From NCBI GenBank assembly GCA_963845185.1, contig CAWJRG010000005.1:544001-608000 (forward strand): 64,000 bases of DNA. The letters are read 5' to 3'. Made by a program: the position numbers and the translations under genes. Of the stretch, positions 4,214-55,349 are shown in pieces. A model generated the notes under the pieces. It worked only from the letters and a program-made list of their open reading frames with translations, searched no databases and was not told the origin of the DNA. Source of the DNA: an uncultured bacterium (lineage in GTDB: Bacteria; Oederibacteriota; PGYV01; CAWJRG01). The first letter of the stretch is position 1; each line of letters starts with the position of its first letter.

Positions 4214-4219
4214 TTGTTT

Positions 4220-4259
4220 CCTCCTTAGATTTCGTTTGCTTTGCCAAGCTGTCAACAGG
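4220..4259 (-). repeat. Truncated copy (3' half only) of the repeated 5'-leader element
   Basis: Sense CCTGTTGACAGCTTGGCAAAGCAAACGAAATCTAAGGAGG matches the 3' arm of the gpmA copy CCTGTTGACGCTCGGCAAAATCAACGGACTCTAAGGAGG. Confidence 0.7.
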
Positions 4260-4311
4260 TAATATCAATTTACAACATTGCTTTGTATTTTGCAATTTAA
4301 ATCACTTCTGA

Positions 4312-6512: not shown

Positions 6513-8039
6513 TTATTTTTTCTCGTTTATCAGTCTTCTTATCTCTCTTTTTATTACCTTGCCCGTGCCTGTTTTCGGCAATTCCGGCCAGAACTCAAAC
6601 CTGTGCGGCACCTTGAAATTCGCCAGGTGCGGCCTGCAAAACATTTTTAACTCTATCTCCGTGGCAATCATGCCGTCCCTTAGCTTGACGACACACACCG
6701 GCACTTCCCCGTGTACTTCGTCTTTTTTCCCTACCACAGCCGCGTCCTCAATTGCCGGGTGTCTGTACAAAATATCCTCGACTTCCCTGGGATACAGGTT
6801 CATGCCGTTGACAAGGATTAAATCCTTTTTTCTGTCGAGTATATAAAGATAGCCTTGTTCGTCAATCTTTCCTATATCGCCGGTCAGGAGCCACCCGTCA
6901 TTCATCACTTCTTTTGTTTCTTCAGGCCTGTCGTAATAACCTTTCATGACATTTGGCCCGCTTACTGCTATCTCACCTGCCTCATTTGTTTTCAAATCTT
7001 TGCCATCCTCATCAACTATTTTTATTTTTACACCTGGAATTGGCGGGCCCACCGAACCTATTTTTCTTACGCCTTCAAGGGGGTTTACAGAAACCACGGG
7101 AGACGCTTCGGAAAGACCGTAACCTTCCAGAAGTGGTATTCTGAATTTCTCCTCAAAATTTTTCAAAACTTCAGCTGAGAGTGGTGCGGCGCCTGATACG
7201 CATACCCTTATAGGGTTAAACCAGAGCAGTAGTTTTGGTATTCTTTTACCTGATAACACGTTGTATACCGGAGGTATAGCTATAAACACAGTAATCCTTT
7301 TAAACATAATTGCCTTTATTATCTTCCCGAAAGGTTTTACCGACTTGAGGATTACCACCGTGCAGAACATATATAGGGGTATGAGAATACACACTGTAAA
7401 AGCAAACGAGTGGAACATCGGCAGAAACAGGATAAACCTGTCCTTTTCAACGACTTCTATTCTTGTTATTGATGAATCAGCATTGGATATCAGATTTTTG
7501 TGTGTTAGCATGGCGCCTTTAGGATGCCCTGTCGTGCCTGAAGTGTAAATGATTACTGCGGTTTCGTTTTCATCCATATCAGCAGCCGGTTCAATTGTAC
7601 CCAGCTTCATTATATCTTTATATTGAATATATTGCTGTCCGTCCATCCTGTCGGTTGCTATTATATTTTCAAGGCTTGGCGTCGAGTTTTTCTTAAAATC
7701 CTTCATTACTTCCGAGCAATCCGACGAGGTTATTAATATCTTGGCTTTTGCGTCGTTCAAAATATAGACTATTTCTTCAAGGCTTAAAAAATTATTCAGA
7801 GGAATTACTATTGCGCCTGCCCTTATGGCCGCAAAATAGCAAATCACAAATTCTATGCTGTTGCATAAAAAAAGTGCTATTTTGTCTCCCTTTTTTATGC
7901 CAAGCTTCGTAAATCCCGAGCTTAAGCGCTCCATATCTTCCTTAAACTTTTTAAATGTCACTTTTTCTTTTTCAAAAATTAAAAATGCCTTGTTCGGTCG
8001 TTTTTCGCTTGCCCTGTTTACAGCGTCAATTAAAGTCAT
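6513..8039 (-). CDS. Long-chain fatty acid-CoA ligase
   Basis: YTSGTTGHPKG, EGYGLSE, TGDIG, DRKKDLI, PKTGTGK. Confidence 0.93.
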   Translation of the reverse strand: MTLIDAVNRASEKRPNKAFLIFEKEKVTFKKFKEDMERLSSGFTKLGIKKGDKIALFLCNSIEFVICYFAAIRAGAIVIPLNNFLSLEEIVYILNDAKAKILITSSDCSEVMKDFKKNSTPSLENIIATDRMDGQQYIQYKDIMKLGTIEPAADMDENETAVIIYTSGTTGHPKGAMLTHKNLISNADSSITRIEVVEKDRFILFLPMFHSFAFTVCILIPLYMFCTVVILKSVKPFGKIIKAIMFKRITVFIAIPPVYNVLSGKRIPKLLLWFNPIRVCVSGAAPLSAEVLKNFEEKFRIPLLEGYGLSEASPVVSVNPLEGVRKIGSVGPPIPGVKIKIVDEDGKDLKTNEAGEIAVSGPNVMKGYYDRPEETKEVMNDGWLLTGDIGKIDEQGYLYILDRKKDLILVNGMNLYPREVEDILYRHPAIEDAAVVGKKDEVHGEVPVCVVKLRDGMIATEIELKMFCRPHLANFKVPHRFEFWPELPKTGTGKVIKREIRRLINEKK

Positions 8040-8045
8040 GAACTT

Positions 8046-8215
8046 CCTCCAATGATATCGTTTGTTTTGTCAAGCTGGATAGCGCAGACAAAACATTACG
8101 ATATCTTGCACCCATTCCAGTCCGGGGCTTTAGCCAGTTAAATAATCCGGTGGATTATTTGACGGGTAGTTTCTCTAAAGTCATTTAATATAAAAACTGC
8201 CCAGACAAGTGGTGC
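8046..8215 (-). ncRNA. Repeated structured 5'-leader element, copy upstream of the acyl-CoA ligase/nadE operon, with a ~70-bp module (8135-8204) in the hairpin-1 loop
   Basis: GCACC/GGTGC, GATATCGT/ACGATATC and TGTTTTGTC/GACAAAACA stems, followed by TTGGAGG. Confidence 0.7.
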
Positions 8216-22390: not shown

Positions 22391-22462
22391 ATATTCTCCT
22401 ATTTTTAATCTTTTGGATTTTACTTATTTTATCACCCCTTCTAATCCAAAACAAGACAGTAT

Positions 22463-22491
22463 TTGATTTTAGTAACAAATGTTGTTAAAAT
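22463..22491 (+). promoter_or_regulatory. Putative sigma70 promoter TTGATT-N17-TAAAAT
   Basis: Consensus match; places the leader element in the glpK 5' UTR. Confidence 0.55.
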
Positions 22492-22508
22492 TAATCAGTA
22501 TTATAACC

Positions 22509-22612
22509 GCACCACTTGTCCCTCGCAAGCTCGGGACTTGAGCGGGTACAAGATTCCGTAAGATTTTATCTTCGCTGTTGACGCTTGATAAAATCAACGG
22601 AATCTATGGAGG
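22509..22612 (+). ncRNA. Repeated structured 5'-leader element upstream of glpK
   Basis: GTCCC/GGGAC, GATTCCGT/ACGGAATC and GATTTTATC/GATAAAATC stems, CTGTTGACG loop, then GGAGG. Confidence 0.75.
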
Positions 22613-22618
22613 TAAGCT

Positions 22619-24127
22619 ATGTCCGAAAAAAAATACGTTGGAGCAGTTGACCAGGGCACAACAAGCACAAGGTTCATGCTTTTTAATAGAAGCGGCGATA
22701 TTGCGGCCGTGCACCAGGTTGAGCATAAGCAGATTTATCCCCAGTCCGGCTGGGTAGAACACGACGCTATGCAGATATGGAACAATACCAAGGAATGCAT
22801 AAATCAGGCGCTATCAAAATCAGGCATCAAGCCTGAAGAAATCGCGTCAATAGGTGTCACAAACCAGCGTGAAACCACCGTTGTCTGGGATAAAACAACC
22901 GGCAAGCCTCTGCATAACGCCATAGTCTGGCAGGACCTGCGCACAGCAGATATCTGCGCGGAACTATCAAAAAAAGGAGGGCAATACAGGTTTCAGAAAA
23001 CAACAGGCCTGCCACTCGCCACATATTTTTCCGGCCCGAAATTGAAATGGCTGTTTGACAACAAGCCAAAAATAAAAAAAGCAGCCGAATCAGGCACTGC
23101 CCTTTTCGGCACAATGGACACGTGGATAATATGGAACCTGACAGGTGGCGCTCACGTTACTGACCCCACAAACGCAAGCCGCACCATGCTCATGGGCTTA
23201 GGCACATTGAAATGGGACAAAAAAATGCTGGGAATATTCGGCATACCTGAAAGCATTTTGCCGGAAATCAGACCGTCGTCAGACCCTAAAGCATACGGCA
23301 TTACACAGAAAACAGGCCCGTTTGGCGCTGAAATACCCGTAATGGGCGACCTCGGAGACCAGCAGGCAGCCTTGTTCGGACAGACATGCTTTGAAAAAGG
23401 CACGGCAAAAAACACTTACGGCACAGGATGCTTTTTGCTTTTAAATACAGGAAACAAACCTGTTTTTTCCAAAAACGGCCTGATTACAACAGTCGGGTAT
23501 AAAATCGGAGACTCGCCGGTTGTATATGCCCTTGAAGGTTCCATAGCAATAGCAGGCGCGCTTGTCCAGTGGGTGCGCGATAAGTTAAAACTAATTACCT
23601 CTGCCCCTGAAATCAATGACCTCGCAATGCAGGCATCTGATAACGGCGGTGTTTATTTTGTACCTGCGTTTTCCGGGCTGTTTGCTCCCTACTGGCGCAG
23701 CGACGCGCGCGGCATTATTGCCGGCCTCACCCATTACACAGGCAAAGAGCATATTGCACGCGCAGCGCTTGAGGCCACGGCATATCAGGCGCGCGAAATT
23801 TTTGAGGCAATGGAAAAAGACTCTGGCATAAAACTCGCCTCATTAAAAGTAGACGGAGGTATGACAGCAAGCGAACTTCTGATGCAGTTTCAGTCAGATA
23901 TATTAAATGTACCTGTCTCCCGGCCAAAGGTCGCCGAGACAACCGCGCTTGGAGCCGCTTACGCCGCAGGCCTGGCAGCGGGCTTCTGGAAATCGCAGGA
24001 AGAGCTAAAGGCAAACTGGATTTTGTCAAAGCAGTGGCAGCCTAAAATGGCCGCTGACAAGCGGGAAAAGTATTTCAAAGAATGGAAAAAAGCAGTGCAG
24101 AAGTCTTTGGGGTGGATGGAAAAATAA
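22619..24127 (+). CDS. glpK: Glycerol kinase
   Basis: [43 protein letters not shown]. Confidence 0.98.
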
Positions 24128-24154: not shown

Positions 24155-25615
24155 TTGAAAAATACTTACGATATTATAATCATAGGTTCAGGCATAGTAG
24201 GCTCTTTGATAGCCCGCTATTTGTCCCGCTACGACATATCAGTGCTCGTCGTTGAAAAAGAAATCGACGTTGGCATGTGCCCCTCCTCTGCCAACTCAGC
24301 TATCATCCACTCCGGTTTTGACCCAAAGCCCAGCACAGTAAAAGCAAAAATGAATGCCACTGGCAACAAGCTGTGGTATTCCCTTGCGCCAGAGCTTGGC
24401 ATTGTTTTCAAGCAGACCGGCAGTTATGTCGTATCTATCGGCGAAGCAGAATTCAAGCGCCTGCCCGAGCTTTTAGAGCGCGGCAAGCTAAACAATGTGC
24501 CTGGCGTGGAAATAATAAACCGTGACGAACTGCTGCGGCGCGAGTCATTGATAAATCCCGAAACATCAGGCGCACTCTGGGCACCGAGCGCGGCAGTTAT
24601 TGACCCTTTTGGTGCCACGCTTGCCGCTGCTGAAAATGCGGTTATAAACGGCGTTAAATACATGTTCGAGACCGAATTCAAAGAATTTATTTTTGAAGGC
24701 ACCAAAGTCATAGGCATAAAAACAAATAACGGTGATTTTTATTCGCGCTGGGTCATAAACTCAGCCGGATTATACTCTGACAAGGTTGCGCATAAAGCAG
24801 GCGCACGAAAGGAATTCGAAATAATACCAAAAAAAGGCTGCTATCTTATTTTTGACGCTGCGAAATTCATAATAAACAGCGTGCTGTTCCAGCTTCCCAC
24901 CGAACAATCCAAGGGCATACTTGTCTCCACCACCACGCACGGCAATGTAATGATAGGCCCTGACAACGCACCTTGTGAGGGTAAGGACGACACCGCGACA
25001 ACAGCCGAGGGCCTTGAAAGAATCATACAGGGTGGAAAACGGCTTATCCCCTCCCTTGACCCGAGAAACACCATAGCCATGTACGCCGGTATAAGGGCAA
25101 CCGGCAACGGAAGCAGGGATTTTATAATTGAAATGCCCAAAGAAATCCCGGGTCTGCTGAATCTATGCGGCATTGAATCCCCGGGCTTTGCGTCCGCACC
25201 TGCAATAGCGCTCGAAGTAATAGAAATGCTCAAGAACGCCGGCGTGAAATTAAATGAAAAGAAAACCTGGAACCCTGTCCGCAAGCCATTCCCGCACTTC
25301 CACATGATGAAGCACGAAGAAAAGGAAAAACTTGTAAAATCAAACCCTGCGTACGGCAGGATAATGTGCAGGTGCGAGGAAATAACCGAAGGAGAAGTGC
25401 TTGACGCCATACATTCGCCTGTGCCTGCGCGCACCTATGACGGCATAAAAAGGCGGACATGGCTTGGAACTGGCCGCTGCCAGGGCGCTTTTGACTACCC
25501 GCGGGTGATAAGCATACTCGCCCGCGAGCTCGGCATACCCGAGACAGAGGTTACAAAAAAAGGTAAAGGCAGCGAACTGGTGTTTAGAAAAACCAAGGAC
25601 GTAACTTATGAATAA
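24155..25615 (+). CDS. FAD-dependent oxidoreductase with C-terminal BFD-like [2Fe-2S] domain (probable glycerol-3-phosphate dehydrogenase subunit)
   Basis: GSGIVG, SSANSAIIHSG, CRCEEITEGE, GRCQG; follows glpK. Confidence 0.85.
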   Translation: MKNTYDIIIIGSGIVGSLIARYLSRYDISVLVVEKEIDVGMCPSSANSAIIHSGFDPKPSTVKAKMNATGNKLWYSLAPELGIVFKQTGSYVVSIGEAEFKRLPELLERGKLNNVPGVEIINRDELLRRESLINPETSGALWAPSAAVIDPFGATLAAAENAVINGVKYMFETEFKEFIFEGTKVIGIKTNNGDFYSRWVINSAGLYSDKVAHKAGARKEFEIIPKKGCYLIFDAAKFIINSVLFQLPTEQSKGILVSTTTHGNVMIGPDNAPCEGKDDTATTAEGLERIIQGGKRLIPSLDPRNTIAMYAGIRATGNGSRDFIIEMPKEIPGLLNLCGIESPGFASAPAIALEVIEMLKNAGVKLNEKKTWNPVRKPFPHFHMMKHEEKEKLVKSNPAYGRIMCRCEEITEGEVLDAIHSPVPARTYDGIKRRTWLGTGRCQGAFDYPRVISILARELGIPETEVTKKGKGSELVFRKTKDVTYE

Positions 25616-26927: not shown

Positions 26928-27302
26928 ATGGAACGAAAATTCATCTGTATCCGCTGCCCCGAAGGCTGCGAAATTACCACAACCATTGACGGTTACGGCA
27001 ACGTAACTGACATAAAAGGCAACTCCTGCAAGCTCGGCATTGAGTATGTAAAAACCGAGGCAACAGACCCGCGCCGTACCCTGACAACCACGGTAAAAGT
27101 GGAGGGTGGAGCCTATCCCCTTTGCCCTGTCTGGAGCGAAAAACCCGTGCCAAAGGATAAAATAATGGATCTGGCAGTCGAACTCCGCAAAATCACTCTA
27201 AAAGCGCCTGTAAAGATCAACCAAATCGTGCTGGAGAACGCTTTAGGAATTGGCGTGAATATTATCGCTTCTTGTGATATAATTAGTATTGAAAAGAAAT
27301 AA
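26928..27302 (+). CDS. DUF1667 family CxxCPxGC protein
   Basis: CIRCPEGC, GNSC, PRRTLTTTV. Confidence 0.88.
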   Translation: MERKFICIRCPEGCEITTTIDGYGNVTDIKGNSCKLGIEYVKTEATDPRRTLTTTVKVEGGAYPLCPVWSEKPVPKDKIMDLAVELRKITLKAPVKINQIVLENALGIGVNIIASCDIISIEKK

Positions 27303-27310
27303 ATATTAAA

Positions 27311-27418
27311 GTACCACTTGTCCAAACCTACAGTCTGGACTTGAGCGGGTACAAGATAGCGTAATGTTTTGTCAGAGCCTGTTGACGTCTCGACAAAACA
27401 AACGCTATCATTAGGAGG
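27311..27418 (+). ncRNA. Repeated structured 5'-leader element upstream of the response regulator
   Basis: GTACC/GGTAC, GTCCA/TGGAC, GATAGCGT/ACGCTATC, TGTTTTGTC/GACAAAACA, then GGAGG. Confidence 0.75.
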
Positions 27419-27426
27419 GTAATAAC

Positions 27427-30602: not shown

Positions 30603-30770
30603 CCTCCTTAGAGTCCGTTGATTTTGCCGAGCGTCAACAGGCAGTCAAATAGTCCTGTGGATTATTTGACGGGTAGTTTCCATAAGTTATCTAATATAAA
30701 AACTACCCAGCAAAATCTTACGGAGTCTTATACCCGCTCAAGTCCCGAACTTGTGAGGGACAAGCGGTAC
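30603..30770 (-). ncRNA. Repeated structured 5'-leader element upstream of gpmA, with a ~70-bp module (30642-30710) in the hairpin-2 loop
   Basis: Sense GTACCGCTTGTCCC...GGGACTTGAGCGGGTAT, GATTTTGCTG/CGGCAAAATC, then TAAGGAGG. Confidence 0.75.
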
Positions 30771-30782
30771 TAGTACTAAAAG

Positions 30783-39619: not shown

Positions 39620-39755
39620 TCCGCCGCGTTTTTCAGCGATAGTGTCCTCAAACTCAAAAAGAATTGACTACTTGTATCAGTTAATTAATTGTACCAAACG
39701 TAAGGGTTTGCATAAAGCAAATTTTTATGTATACTTTCATCGAGGAGAGTGACAA

Positions 39756-40088
39756 ATGACTGACAACCAACAGAATAACGGATTGAAGAAACCAAAGTTA
39801 ACCCCAGAACAACTTTTTGATATTTATCAGGAATGTTCCTTACCCAACGCGCCAGTAAAAGCCATCCTGGAACGGTGCGGGCTTAAACCGTGGCATCTTA
39901 TTGCCTTGCGTAAGAGAATCAAGCAAGCTGCCCTGTCAGAACTATCGAATCCGGCAAAATCCGGCAGAAAGAAGTCCATGGTTCCCGTAGAAAGCCTTGC
40001 TCAAGTGGATAAGGAACTTTCTCAAACAAAGGACGCGCTGGCTGCTGTCGGGCATGAGCTTGCGTTGTTAAAAAAAAAGATGAGTTGA
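39756..40088 (+). CDS. IS3-family transposase OrfA
   Basis: 110 aa, HTH-like region plus leucine-zipper-like C-terminus ending at the A9G run (40070-40079). Confidence 0.8.
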   Translation: MTDNQQNNGLKKPKLTPEQLFDIYQECSLPNAPVKAILERCGLKPWHLIALRKRIKQAALSELSNPAKSGRKKSMVPVESLAQVDKELSQTKDALAAVGHELALLKKKMS

Positions 40089-41086
40089 GTCTCAAGGGTC
40101 CTTTGAAGGGGCACTATCCGGCCCAAGTTAGGCAGATAGTTGTTATCACTATAAACGAAGCCGTACTATCCGGTTTCACGCAGAAAAGAGCTTGTTTGAT
40201 CTTTGACATAGACGCCAGAAAATTCAGACGCTGGGCTAAACTAAAAAAGAGAACGCCAAGAACGGCATGTAACAAACTGTTGCCGTTTGAAAAGACATCG
40301 ATTATTGACTCTGCCTTTAGACCTGAAAATATAGGCAAGCCATTGAGCCATATTTACGTATATGGCCATAATTCAGGCGCTTTTCATGCTTCTCTATCGA
40401 CTGTATACAGGTATCTAAAAGCCGAAGATCTCGTAAAACCATTCGAACCCAAAAAACGGAAATCTAATCATGTTTCGGCTCACGATCTTTTGGATGCTGG
40501 ATTTTCCCTTTTGACCTATGACGGTTCATGCTTCAAAACCGAGTCCGGCGTAACTGTTTGGTCCATACCGGTTCTGCTTCTGCCTTACAGGTATCTGCTG
40601 CATATCGGACACAGTTTACGCGGCGTCAGTTCAGCGGATTTACGGGATGCCGTTGCTCAAGCCATACTTGAACTGCCGGATGACTTTCCTGACAACATAG
40701 TGGCTTTTTCAGACCGCGGATCTGCTATGAAAGCCAAAAAGACTGTTGCCTTCCTGGAAGATGTGCTAAAAATTCCTGTACGCTACGGACGCCCAAACAC
40801 GCCGGATGACGAACCATGGATTGAGGCCCTGAATAAAAACTCGAAGTATCACAGGGATGTGCCGGCTGTCTTTCCAACGGTTTCAGATGTACTGGACTGG
40901 TTAGAAAAATTTAAACCACTGCATAACAACGATCCTCATAGCTCGCTACATTATGTTACACCGGCTGAGGCGTTCGCGGGAAAAATGGAGGTGATTTTAA
41001 GCCAGAGAAAGAACAACCTGATCACTGCAAACATTATAAGGTTGGAGGCTTTCAGGGCTTCCAAGCTTCAAGTAGTGATTGGGTGA
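40085..41086 (+). CDS. IS3-family transposase OrfB (DDE integrase core), -1 frame
   Basis: TYDGS, SDRGS, IEALNK triad; PHSSLHYVTP. Confidence 0.88.
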   Translation: MSLKGPLKGHYPAQVRQIVVITINEAVLSGFTQKRACLIFDIDARKFRRWAKLKKRTPRTACNKLLPFEKTSIIDSAFRPENIGKPLSHIYVYGHNSGAFHASLSTVYRYLKAEDLVKPFEPKKRKSNHVSAHDLLDAGFSLLTYDGSCFKTESGVTVWSIPVLLLPYRYLLHIGHSLRGVSSADLRDAVAQAILELPDDFPDNIVAFSDRGSAMKAKKTVAFLEDVLKIPVRYGRPNTPDDEPWIEALNKNSKYHRDVPAVFPTVSDVLDWLEKFKPLHNNDPHSSLHYVTPAEAFAGKMEVILSQRKNNLITANIIRLEAFRASKLQVVIG

Positions 41087-41100
41087 CGGTTTGAGGTCAA

Positions 41101-42714
41101 TTAAGCTGAAAAACTCAGTAATAAATCTAAATCCGAACTATGACCATGGTAATCTGTTACATCTTTTATATCTAAATCCACTTCGTTTGCCTTAGTTTGT
41201 TCTATATTTTCATTATCATCTTGTTTCCGCGAACTTGAAGTTCGTAATTTTTTATTCAACCTTAAGTTTTCTCCTAATATATCACTTATTTCCATTACAA
41301 TTTCAAGAACGCTGTTTGTTACATCATCGTTAAGTAGTTTTTGAAAAGCCATTTGGTACTTCACAGTTTCCGTAGATTCACTACTAGACATCAAAAACGA
41401 GGTATAAGAAACAACCATAAAACCAGATTCGTAATTTTCCGATTTAATTTTCACTAATCTTGTGTTCAAATTATTTATGAACGACGCAGTAAAATAATTA
41501 TTTTTTGTCTCAAAATATAACACTTGAGTATCAATTTTTTCTCGGTAGTAATTAAAAAATTCTATCTGCATTGTCTCTTTAGGCGGATTAAGTATTTTTA
41601 CTTTACAGATGTCATTCTCAATTTCAACAGAAATAAGACAGATATTCATTTTTTCATTTTTTCTAATATCCTCTGTTATCTTTACTTTTGCATATAAATT
41701 TTTTGTAATGGGTTTATTATCTAAACTTTCTTTCAGGCCAAGCTGCTTTAATGTCGAGCCTTTTTTGGCAATTATGGCAACAACACTTTCATAATTCCCT
41801 CTCGGCGGATTCATAAACATCGCTGCCTTGCTCATATTTGCCGACCCAAAAAATACTAAATCATTTTCATTTGTCTCATATAATATCAATTTTGCATGTA
41901 AAAAAGATTTGGCAAATATGTCTATATTTTTTATACTATCCGGTGGCTTAAATTCATACCATTGTATATTTTTCCCCAATTTTTCAATCTTTTTCCCATC
42001 AGCATTAAGTTCCTTTTTTTGTATAATTACATCTATCGGTGTGTCCGAAAAATCTATGCTTAGCTTTTTTAAAATCTCAAATTCATCATCCCAAAACGGA
42101 CTAATTACAATAATTCTTTTAGGCTTATAATCAGATATCATAGTTGTAATTTGTGAAAAAAGATTTTTTTCAACATTAATAAAAAGTGCTTTTTCTTTAT
42201 TTTCATAAATTTTATTGCCTAGCCATGGCGTATTTTGTTTAGCAAAATTTAATTGTCTTTTTATACTCTCTGGCATTTGATTTTCAAAGGAATCTACTAA
42301 TTGTAAGGTTTTTATAAAAGAAATTTCGGTTTCATTGTCTTGAATTTCTATATCCCCAAATAATTCCCAGTTTGATAAAAAACCGCCGGAAGTGGCATTT
42401 CCACTGCCTATTACAATTTTTCCTTTTTCTTTCCCCAGCAATAAAAGTATTTTCGGATGAAATGACAAACAATTATAAATCGGCGTTACGCTATACAATC
42501 TTCCCATTGCTAATGGTATATCGTTTTCATTTTCAATCATTTTTTTATAAGATTGATTATCCATAAATACCATTTGATTGGAAATTCCATTCCTCAATAA
42601 TTTCCTACTTATTACTTTGCTATAAAAGTGTAAATCTAGTGAATATGTTAATAATATGCACGAATGTATTTTGCCTTTGAATTCCGATATTTCGTTTAAT
42701 ATATTATATGGCAT
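41101..42714 (-). CDS. Phospholipase D-like nuclease with two HxK motifs, ending at the IS
   Basis: TYSLD, FHPK...GSGNAT, LHAK...GSANMS; ATG 42714 overlaps the upstream stop. Confidence 0.8.
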   Translation of the reverse strand: MPYNILNEISEFKGKIHSCILLTYSLDLHFYSKVISRKLLRNGISNQMVFMDNQSYKKMIENENDIPLAMGRLYSVTPIYNCLSFHPKILLLLGKEKGKIVIGSGNATSGGFLSNWELFGDIEIQDNETEISFIKTLQLVDSFENQMPESIKRQLNFAKQNTPWLGNKIYENKEKALFINVEKNLFSQITTMISDYKPKRIIVISPFWDDEFEILKKLSIDFSDTPIDVIIQKKELNADGKKIEKLGKNIQWYEFKPPDSIKNIDIFAKSFLHAKLILYETNENDLVFFGSANMSKAAMFMNPPRGNYESVVAIIAKKGSTLKQLGLKESLDNKPITKNLYAKVKITEDIRKNEKMNICLISVEIENDICKVKILNPPKETMQIEFFNYYREKIDTQVLYFETKNNYFTASFINNLNTRLVKIKSENYESGFMVVSYTSFLMSSSESTETVKYQMAFQKLLNDDVTNSVLEIVMEISDILGENLRLNKKLRTSSSRKQDDNENIEQTKANEVDLDIKDVTDYHGHSSDLDLLLSFSA

Positions 42715-55230: not shown

Positions 55231-55235
55231 GGCGA

Positions 55236-55335
55236 CCTCCAAATCGATGGTTTTGAGACAAACCCACAGGGTGCAGTCGAAAATCACATCGACTTGCACC
55301 CGACCAAGTCCGAGTTTTATCCGGACAAGCGGTAT
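55236..55335 (-). ncRNA. Repeated structured 5'-leader element (divergent copy) upstream of the DUF362 gene
   Basis: Sense ATACCGCTTGTCCG...CGGACTTGGTCGGGTGCAA, GTCGATG/CATCGAT, then TTGGAGG. Confidence 0.7.
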
Positions 55336-55349
55336 TGTTTAATTGATAA

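Follow-up and report, generated by a model that had tools for sequence, protein, structure and literature searches.

We identified in the leader of glpK a dispersed repeat of about 105 nucleotides (nt), hereafter element M, that is specific to one bacterial lineage and was probably inserted between a promoter and the Shine-Dalgarno (SD) sequence rather than inherited. Element M is most likely an insertion that is gained and lost, targets the 5' edge of ribosome-binding sites (RBSs) and rides in the leader of the gene behind it. It is known only from one uncultured lineage of peat-bog bacteria. The window, that is, the whole stretch of 64,000 nt that was analysed, is C5:544001-608000 of an assembly (G000) of 3.50 Mb in 11 contigs, which is 99.4% complete.

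The initial annotation had placed five full copies and one half copy in the window. All were confirmed, in the sequence itself and by a covariance model (R1) that was built from 43 copies and run unfiltered over the window, where it returned five full copies (57-113 bits) and one 3' half, with everything else at noise level; a MAFFT alignment of the five window copies defined the two-hairpin unit. The copy in the glpK (FGGY) leader occupies 22510-22607 on the forward strand (112.8 bits at 22503-22616; two-hairpin MFE fold, z -2.87), and consists of hairpin 1 (approximately 22510-22548) and hairpin 2 (approximately 22552-22604), then TAT; it is followed on the same strand, over 22608-22621, by the native SD GGAGG (22608-22612), a spacer and the ATG (22619-22621). 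A second forward-strand copy, in the leader of a response regulator (a receiver-domain protein), lies at 27312-27412 (104 bits at 27305-27422), between the stop codon of a DUF1667 gene (TAA, 27300-27302) and the SD (27413-27418). Three further full copies are on the reverse strand: before gpmA (His_Phos_1) at 30608-30769 (57.3 bits at 30664-30776), with GGAGG at 30607-30603 and ATG at 30595-30593; before an AMP-binding ligase gene at 8051-8214 (70.2 bits at 8042-8159), with GGAGG at 8050-8046 and ATG at 8039-8037; and, as a divergent subfamily, before the gene of a DUF362 protein at 55241-55334 (68.2 bits at 55231-55341), where the copy begins 15 nt after the tatC stop and precedes an SD at 55240-55236 and an ATG at 55230-55228. 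The hairpin-2 loop is interrupted in the gpmA copy, and the hairpin-1 loop in the ligase copy. The half copy is a 5'-truncated remnant, comprising the loop and 3' arm of hairpin 2, at 4225-4259 on the reverse strand (16.7 bits, E 0.024 at 4216-4304, model positions 54-109), and adjoins the GGAGG (4224-4220) and ATG (4213-4211) of a gene for a beta-propeller protein. Throughout the window, 2-5 nt lie between the end of element M and GGAGG with its start codon.

Sigma-70-like promoters had been proposed just upstream of two copies; one such match was found before the glpK copy at 22463-22491 on the forward strand, as a consensus match only (TTGATT-17-TAAAAT with TG), about 18 nt 5' of element M, and would put the glpK copy inside the 5' UTR. 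Promoter-like sequences also occur within copies. The response-regulator copy contains a TTGACG-18-TATCAT sequence (a consensus match only), which was rejected as the promoter of that gene because the start would fall at or after the SD. In the gpmA copy, the TTGACT at the 3' end of a nested repeat (element N, described below) and the CAAAAT of the hairpin-2 3' arm stand 16 nt apart at 30621-30648 (reverse strand), forming a promoter-like TTGACT-16-CAAAAT match just 5' of the gpmA SD. This copy starts about 10 nt past the enolase terminator, so that there is no room for another promoter.

We investigated the structure of element M in 43 distinct copies, three from the window and 40 chosen for diversity from 88 sharing less than 88% identity. 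RNAalifold resolved these into two hairpins with 25 pairs, 18 of which have changed on both sides; 94.9% of the 1075 cells are paired, compared to 80.8% in shuffles, and none of 500 shuffles reached the observed value. Sliding the partners left only 27-41% of the cells of the same structure paired, the covariation score was 0.401 versus 0.150, and three single copies folded with z = -2.9, -4.2 and -2.8, respectively. The covariation of the stems described in the initial annotation is thus borne out. Hairpin 1 stands on a foot of 4 bp (YACC/GGTR) that covaries (TA 72, CG 32), above which come an asymmetric internal loop and a GUCC/GGAC stem, with the tip left free; the internal loop is near-invariant, remaining almost unchanged among copies and across families. 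Hairpin 2 is formed of three stacked helices flanking a conserved GUAA/AAC loop; about five subfamilies can be told apart by the sequences of its arms, which compensate one another within each subfamily. Over the 123 full copies in the genome and 29 pairs, 3188 of the 3567 pair cells (89%) are Watson-Crick, 71 are G-U, 88 are A-C and 218 are others. G-U is not commoner than A-C, so that there is no G-U excess of the kind normally left by selection on one RNA strand, and no sign of selection on the sense RNA.

Element M corresponds to no known riboswitch, as had been supposed from the sequence: Rfam 15 gave no match in the whole window at gathering score, noise only at a permissive threshold over 22400-22700 (E 0.67-8.9), and nothing except a tRNA at 15 loci of relatives. 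K-turn, hammerhead and loop E motifs were compared by eye only, and none fits element M.

Two copies had been reported in the initial annotation as long versions of the element (8046-8215 and 30603-30770). Their positions were correct; they are really ordinary copies split by another repeat, element N, which is about 67 nt long and forms two small hairpins. This has 52 matches in the genome, most of them inside element M and a few outside any recognisable copy of it. In the window it lies in the hairpin-2 loop of the gpmA copy (30642-30708, reverse strand, E 1.3e-18) and in hairpin 1 of the ligase copy (8135-8202, reverse strand, E 3.1e-19). Inside element M it is always on the same strand, and occupies the hairpin-2 loop, the hairpin-1 loop or the gap between hairpin 2 and the SD. 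Pneumococcal repeats insert into one another, according to the portion of a 2024 review of prokaryotic MITEs available to us (PMC10969869), and element N nests in element M in the same manner. Contigs from three peat DNA runs, which are short and of low depth, contained one 68-nt skip at 30640-30709, most likely coming from other copies without the nested repeat. We additionally identified a tandem array of 6.5 units with a period of 100 nt at C9:916583-917180 (reverse strand). It has no SD between units, carries at its head a TGnGATAAT box ending 7 nt 5' of the first unit, and closes with a variant unit containing other inserted sequence.

Across the genome, nhmmer identified 152 matches at E < 1e-5, 123 of them full length, and R1 identified 148. 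The statement that every copy is in sense and abuts an SD holds in the window and does not extend to the genome, in which 86 of the 123 full copies end 2-5 nt 5' of GGAG(G) and a start codon, always in sense. This class was defined by a start codon within 14 nt and an ORF of 50 aa or more beginning there, and contains 84 copies if the minimum is raised to 80 aa. The remaining full copies comprise 10 upstream units of tandems, one whose SD is separated by a nested repeat, and 26 others, about nine of which, on inspection, either precede a long ORF by 21-76 nt or adjoin one that is very short. One copy, at C11:57212-57319 (reverse strand), abuts a hydrophobic ORF of 25 codons with a 574-aa ORF next, which we take to resemble the pair kdpF-kdpA; some copies scored as having no ORF may precede real micro-genes. 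Element M is present at 74 of approximately 1206 ORFs of at least 120 aa with GGAG-N4-9-ATG. Upstream of the 86 SD-abutting copies, the neighbour is a co-directional ORF within 40 nt in 19 cases, at 41-150 nt in 21 and further off in 28, and a divergent ORF in 18; the 19 closest copies are probably inside operons.

The orientation of element M tracks the gene and not the replichore. Copies in lagging orientation number about 12 of 152, a frequency like that of lagging-strand genes (about 10%), albeit with small numbers, and include the forward-strand copies at glpK and the response regulator. On the large contigs about 90% of SD-type ORFs are co-oriented with replication, GC skew is approximately +/-0.1, and switches lie near C9:750 kb and C10:780 kb.

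The ends of element M are unrelated to each other and form no terminal inverted repeats, and flank matches of 2-3 nt are not above permutation, in agreement with the initial annotation, which had reported neither terminal repeats nor target duplication. An excess of flank 4-mers (7 versus 2.0) is explained by copies with partial copies in front. The three bases before YACC are AAG, CAA, TAA, TAG or TGA in 72 of 114 copies, giving a weak [ACT]A[AG] preference at the 5' flank and no fixed target tetranucleotide. A stop codon as the rule for the 5' edge was rejected, being present in only 35 of 114 copies, as was a general TATC target upstream of SDs, which is absent from 1132 ordinary SD genes. 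The median nearest-neighbour identity of the copies is 0.88, and only 6 of 117 dispersed copies reach 0.95 or more; the copies are old.

We compared orthologous loci in relatives, found by scanning metagenome contigs with the GlpA-like protein encoded at 24155-25615, which is 88% identical in L071 and about 70% identical in L072, L073, L075 and L078. Empty sites were found, at three polymorphic loci. R1 detected no copy at the glpK or response-regulator leaders of these relatives, and the sites are empty in L071, L072, L073 and L078. At the response-regulator junction of L071, about 10 nt lead from the DUF1667 stop to AGGAGGGTA and then the start, and in the window the same AGGAGGGTA carries the 101-nt element M directly 5'. 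The glpK leaders of L072, L073 and L078 consist of a promoter-like box, about 15 nt and GGAGG, with no element M. Reciprocally, a copy in L071 (87.7 bits) adjoins the GGAGG of an ABC-3 permease gene on its 5' side, and the orthologue in G000 (74% identity, C5:693725-694546) is an empty site. At all three sites the junction falls immediately 5' of the GGAGG that belongs to the gene, SD and spacer are near-identical in the empty allele, and filled and empty sites differ by element M alone, with syntenic housekeeping genes on the flanks.

Since the SD is already there in the empty allele in three of three cases, element M targets RBSs and does not supply them. The initial annotation had offered a mobile element that either targets or supplies these sites: the former is supported by the three presence/absence sites cut at the 5' edge of GGAGG, and the latter is unsupported, with the SD present at all three empty sites and absent between tandem units. 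The relatives are 12-30% diverged in protein, so that the exact ends of the element cannot be fixed at these sites, nor precise deletion told apart from insertion. Element M may be called mobile on the strength of the three presence/absence sites and the copy number. With a classical MITE it shares many non-coding copies (148) and presence/absence (3 sites), and lacks terminal inverted repeats and target duplication. In an integron attC array, which stands next to intI, a gene cassette moves with the repeat, whereas sites of element M differ by the repeat alone.

Two further features were noted in the relatives. The empty glpK leaders of L072, L073 and L078 hold ACGACGG(T/A)T.. just before GGAGG, a motif that has no counterpart in ordinary SD genes of G000; it is similar to the hairpin-2 3' arm of the window copy and might be what is left of an old copy. 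In L071, a weak variant copy at 7687-7819 (reverse strand, 21.4 bits) still ends at GGAGG and ATG, with a different palindromic insert, about 70 nt long, splitting its hairpin 2.

We looked for a function common to the products of the genes behind element M, using the five in the window and a random sample of 60 out of the 83 SD-abutting genes elsewhere in the genome, 65 proteins in total, and found none. The products include ribosomal protein L3 (rplC), a Mur ligase, ArgG, PyrB, two glycolysis kinases, Nuo subunits, a GH5 cellulase, T9SS cargo proteins, ABC parts, PhoU, NifU and a hibernation factor, and 13 proteins are without a Pfam family. The predicted probability that the SD is unpaired was 0.49 with the element (74 genes) and 0.46 in 200 ordinary SD genes, which is not a significant difference, and dropped to 0.385 on shuffling element M (p = 0.0045). 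Predicted openness from -3 to +25 was slightly greater (0.587 vs 0.502, p = 2e-6), and the SD lies outside both hairpins in the consensus and MFE folds. Element M is thus predicted to fold closed on itself and to leave the SD free. It is not a riboswitch: we found no SD sequestration, no shared pathway and no conservation at orthologous genes. The suggestion in the initial annotation of a cis-regulatory RNA controlling a large regulon is similarly unsupported, as the genes are unrelated, the SD is predicted to be free and the sites turn over.

We investigated the distribution of element M beyond this genome. R1 matched 12 of 24 genomes of the order, with 1-18 matches each, and a pattern for the hairpin-1 motif gave 18 loci over 185,579 species genomes, nearly all in metagenome-assembled genomes (MAGs) of candidate division FCPU426 or in MAGs without a taxon title, and none in viral contigs. 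The family thus appears to be confined to candidate division FCPU426; the available part of the main text of the Goldbacteria/FCPU426 genome paper (PMC7031533) mentions no such repeat. Among these genomes of the order, SD-abutting copies were found only in G001, of another family, which has two.

A low-copy sister family, f10, was examined in 21 copies from G014, G023 and G019. In 18-19 of the 21 the copy is directly followed by a GC-rich hairpin with flanking A and T runs, and in 19 of 21 the nearest downstream ORF of at least 90 aa is on the opposite strand (within 62 nt in 12). In many f10 copies a TATAAT-like box stands 1-4 nt 5' of the first hairpin-1 pair, and about 40 nt of promoter-like upstream sequence are common to three of them. 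Tandems of two or three units closed by a terminator also occur in f10. From this arrangement, f10 copies look like stand-alone small-RNA units beside the terminators of convergent genes, and element M in the window's branch looks like a leader insertion. A purine run at the 3' flank is common to both branches, AAAAAGG... in f10 and (A)AGGAGG in the window's branch. One copy, in the spacer between the fabG stop and acpP and antisense to both, is found in five genomes of two families (loci L056, L058, L059, L062 and L069, in G019, G009, G017, G016 and G021). The fabG-acpP spacer of G000 has no copy, and this genome has a sense copy before a probable fabD, the name being inferred from size and position.

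Element M has landed, in sense, just 5' of the SD that about 90 unrelated genes already had, and we infer that it is co-transcribed as part of their leaders. As it is predicted to pair only with itself and to leave the SD free, insertions there would be tolerated, and might even provide a stable, insulating 5' structure. Its spread would be by an orientation- and site-specific process that recognises a purine tract, the SD in the window's branch and the A-run at the terminator foot in f10, and it probably descends from a small-RNA unit that stood alone, with promoter, hairpins and terminator.

Copies that are old and still paired would fit selection for a host function equally as well as mobility, and the near-invariant hairpin-1 loop is as expected for a binding site. 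Element M might therefore be the cis-leader of a post-transcriptional regulon, in which a lineage-specific RNA-binding protein or other trans factor binds the hairpin-1 loop and tunes translation or decay, with tandem arrays and stand-alone units as decoys and mobility serving only to recruit the regulon. Csr/Rsm-type systems pair leader sites with multi-site decoy RNAs, and the analogy, which is functional only, extends to a structured unit beside many SDs and to promoter-headed tandem arrays. Unlike these systems, element M is a unit of 105 nt rather than a GGA hairpin and has a target set that turns over. Orientation and SD distance are fixed in 86 of 123 copies, diverged copies remain paired, the hairpin-1 internal loop is shared by copies and families, a TGnGATAAT box heads the 6.5-unit array, arrays with a terminator recur in other genomes, and the fabG-acpP spacer copy has been kept in five genomes of two families, all of which would suit a regulon. 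We nevertheless hold this reading to be unlikely, since no theme unites the 65 genes (rplC, argG, pyrB, pfk, nuo, cellulase and T9SS cargo among them), the occupied sites differ between relatives, the SD is predicted not to be sequestered, G-U pairs do not exceed A-C (71 vs 88 of 3567 cells), a 67-nt parasite is tolerated in either hairpin, and no partner gene was identified. A further proposal is that element M is a portable RNA or ssDNA module with a dedicated FCPU426 partner, either SD-reading or RNA-guided insertion machinery or a regulator that couples about 100 leaders to decoy arrays. We would put this, too, among the less probable readings; if it were true, a global layer of translation control would have been recruited by transposition.

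Element M as a gained-and-lost insertion at RBSs was also weighed against two more familiar kinds of repeat, both of which fit poorly. A gene-less IS200/IS605 derivative, resembling PATEs or REPINs with their RAYT and moved as ssDNA by a Y1 HUH transposase with specificity for subterminal hairpins and for a short target, would share with element M the lack of terminal inverted repeats and target duplication, hairpins close to both ends and orientation-specific insertion at a short site, and Watson-Crick stems without G-U excess are as expected for DNA hairpins. This is very improbable, because the genome, at 99.4% completeness, has no match to PF01797 (Y1_Tnp) where control genomes were positive, the orientation of element M follows genes with no replication-strand bias beyond theirs, and its weak 5' preference includes no fixed tetranucleotide. 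About equally improbable is a portable expression cassette, bringing a promoter and RBS to the genes that follow, of the kind described for Neisseria REP2. In the available text of PMC3184786, REP2 and the IR-A/IR-B repeats of Borrelia plasmids are likewise of about 100-150 bp, lack terminal inverted repeats, contain two internal stem-loops and form 5' UTR sequence directly in front of unrelated ORFs; REP2 is there said to bring a promoter, RBS and ATG and to mark genes that are regulated together. The likeness is to these descriptions and not one of compared sequences. Bases before GGAG that vary by subfamily (e.g. CTAAGGAG vs CAAGGGAGG) and the promoter-like matches within the response-regulator and gpmA copies would also be compatible with a cassette. 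In contrast to REP2, as described in the same text, which brings its RBS and is present in 23-26 copies before co-regulated genes, element M has about 148 copies with no theme, and at three of three empty sites SD and spacer belong to the gene; moreover, tandem units have no SD between them, the internal TTGACG/TATCAT would initiate at or past the SD, and 19 of the 86 SD-abutting copies are in probable operons.

Small structured repeats are common in bacteria, and transcripts of Correia and ERIC repeats are processed by RNases. Pneumococcal BOX, RUP and SPRITE, enterobacterial ERIC and Neisseria Correia elements are, like element M, small, structured, non-coding intergenic repeats, and are co-transcribed with their neighbours, as element M would be; unlike element M, they are built with terminal repeats or modular boxes, and no preference of theirs for the SD edge has been reported. 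The terms 'Shine-Dalgarno', 'ribosome binding' and 'RBS' do not occur in the available portion of the 2024 review (PMC10969869). Landing of a small mobile element at the SD edge, here in a single orientation before about 90 unrelated genes, thus appears to be undescribed in the literature searched. If the choice of site were enzymatic, it would point to a targeting mechanism that reads the SD. If it arose from selection, a closed two-hairpin leader would be a near-neutral or useful 'insulator' before the SD, a design that synthetic biologists build deliberately. With the stand-alone, terminator-adjacent form in f10, the steps from a small-RNA gene to a mobile leader would be available as a natural series. 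Annotators of genomes from this phylum should mask element M, and covariance alone is no evidence of a riboswitch.

Finally, we investigated the mobile elements of G000, which include an IS5-like element (about 15 copies), IS110, IS4, IS3 and a group II intron, and found no link between element M and any transposase or other mobilising function in this genome. The group II intron, identified by Rfam RF02005 and RF00029 and by its TIGR04416 reverse transcriptase/maturase (L259, L260), is present in six full copies that are 99.4-100% identical (C9:699923-701880, C9:811158-813089, C9:845005-846928, C10:383310-385241, C10:831391-833306 and C11:61512-63458) and one fragment, and is intact only in G000 among the 24 genomes of the order. 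Its reverse transcriptase was rejected as the mobiliser of element M on grounds of timing, as the introns are 99.4-100% identical and the copies of element M have a median identity of 0.88, indicating that the two bursts were not contemporaneous. Each of the six full introns lies directly after the GGAGG-N5-6-ATG(A) of a gene, and translation-start regions are a recurrent homing target in this genome. The window itself contains an insertion sequence of about 1.5 kb at 39621-41116 (C5:583621-585116), with six copies in the genome, whose 333-aa ORF (40085-41086) shows a weak match to the rve_3 integrase core.
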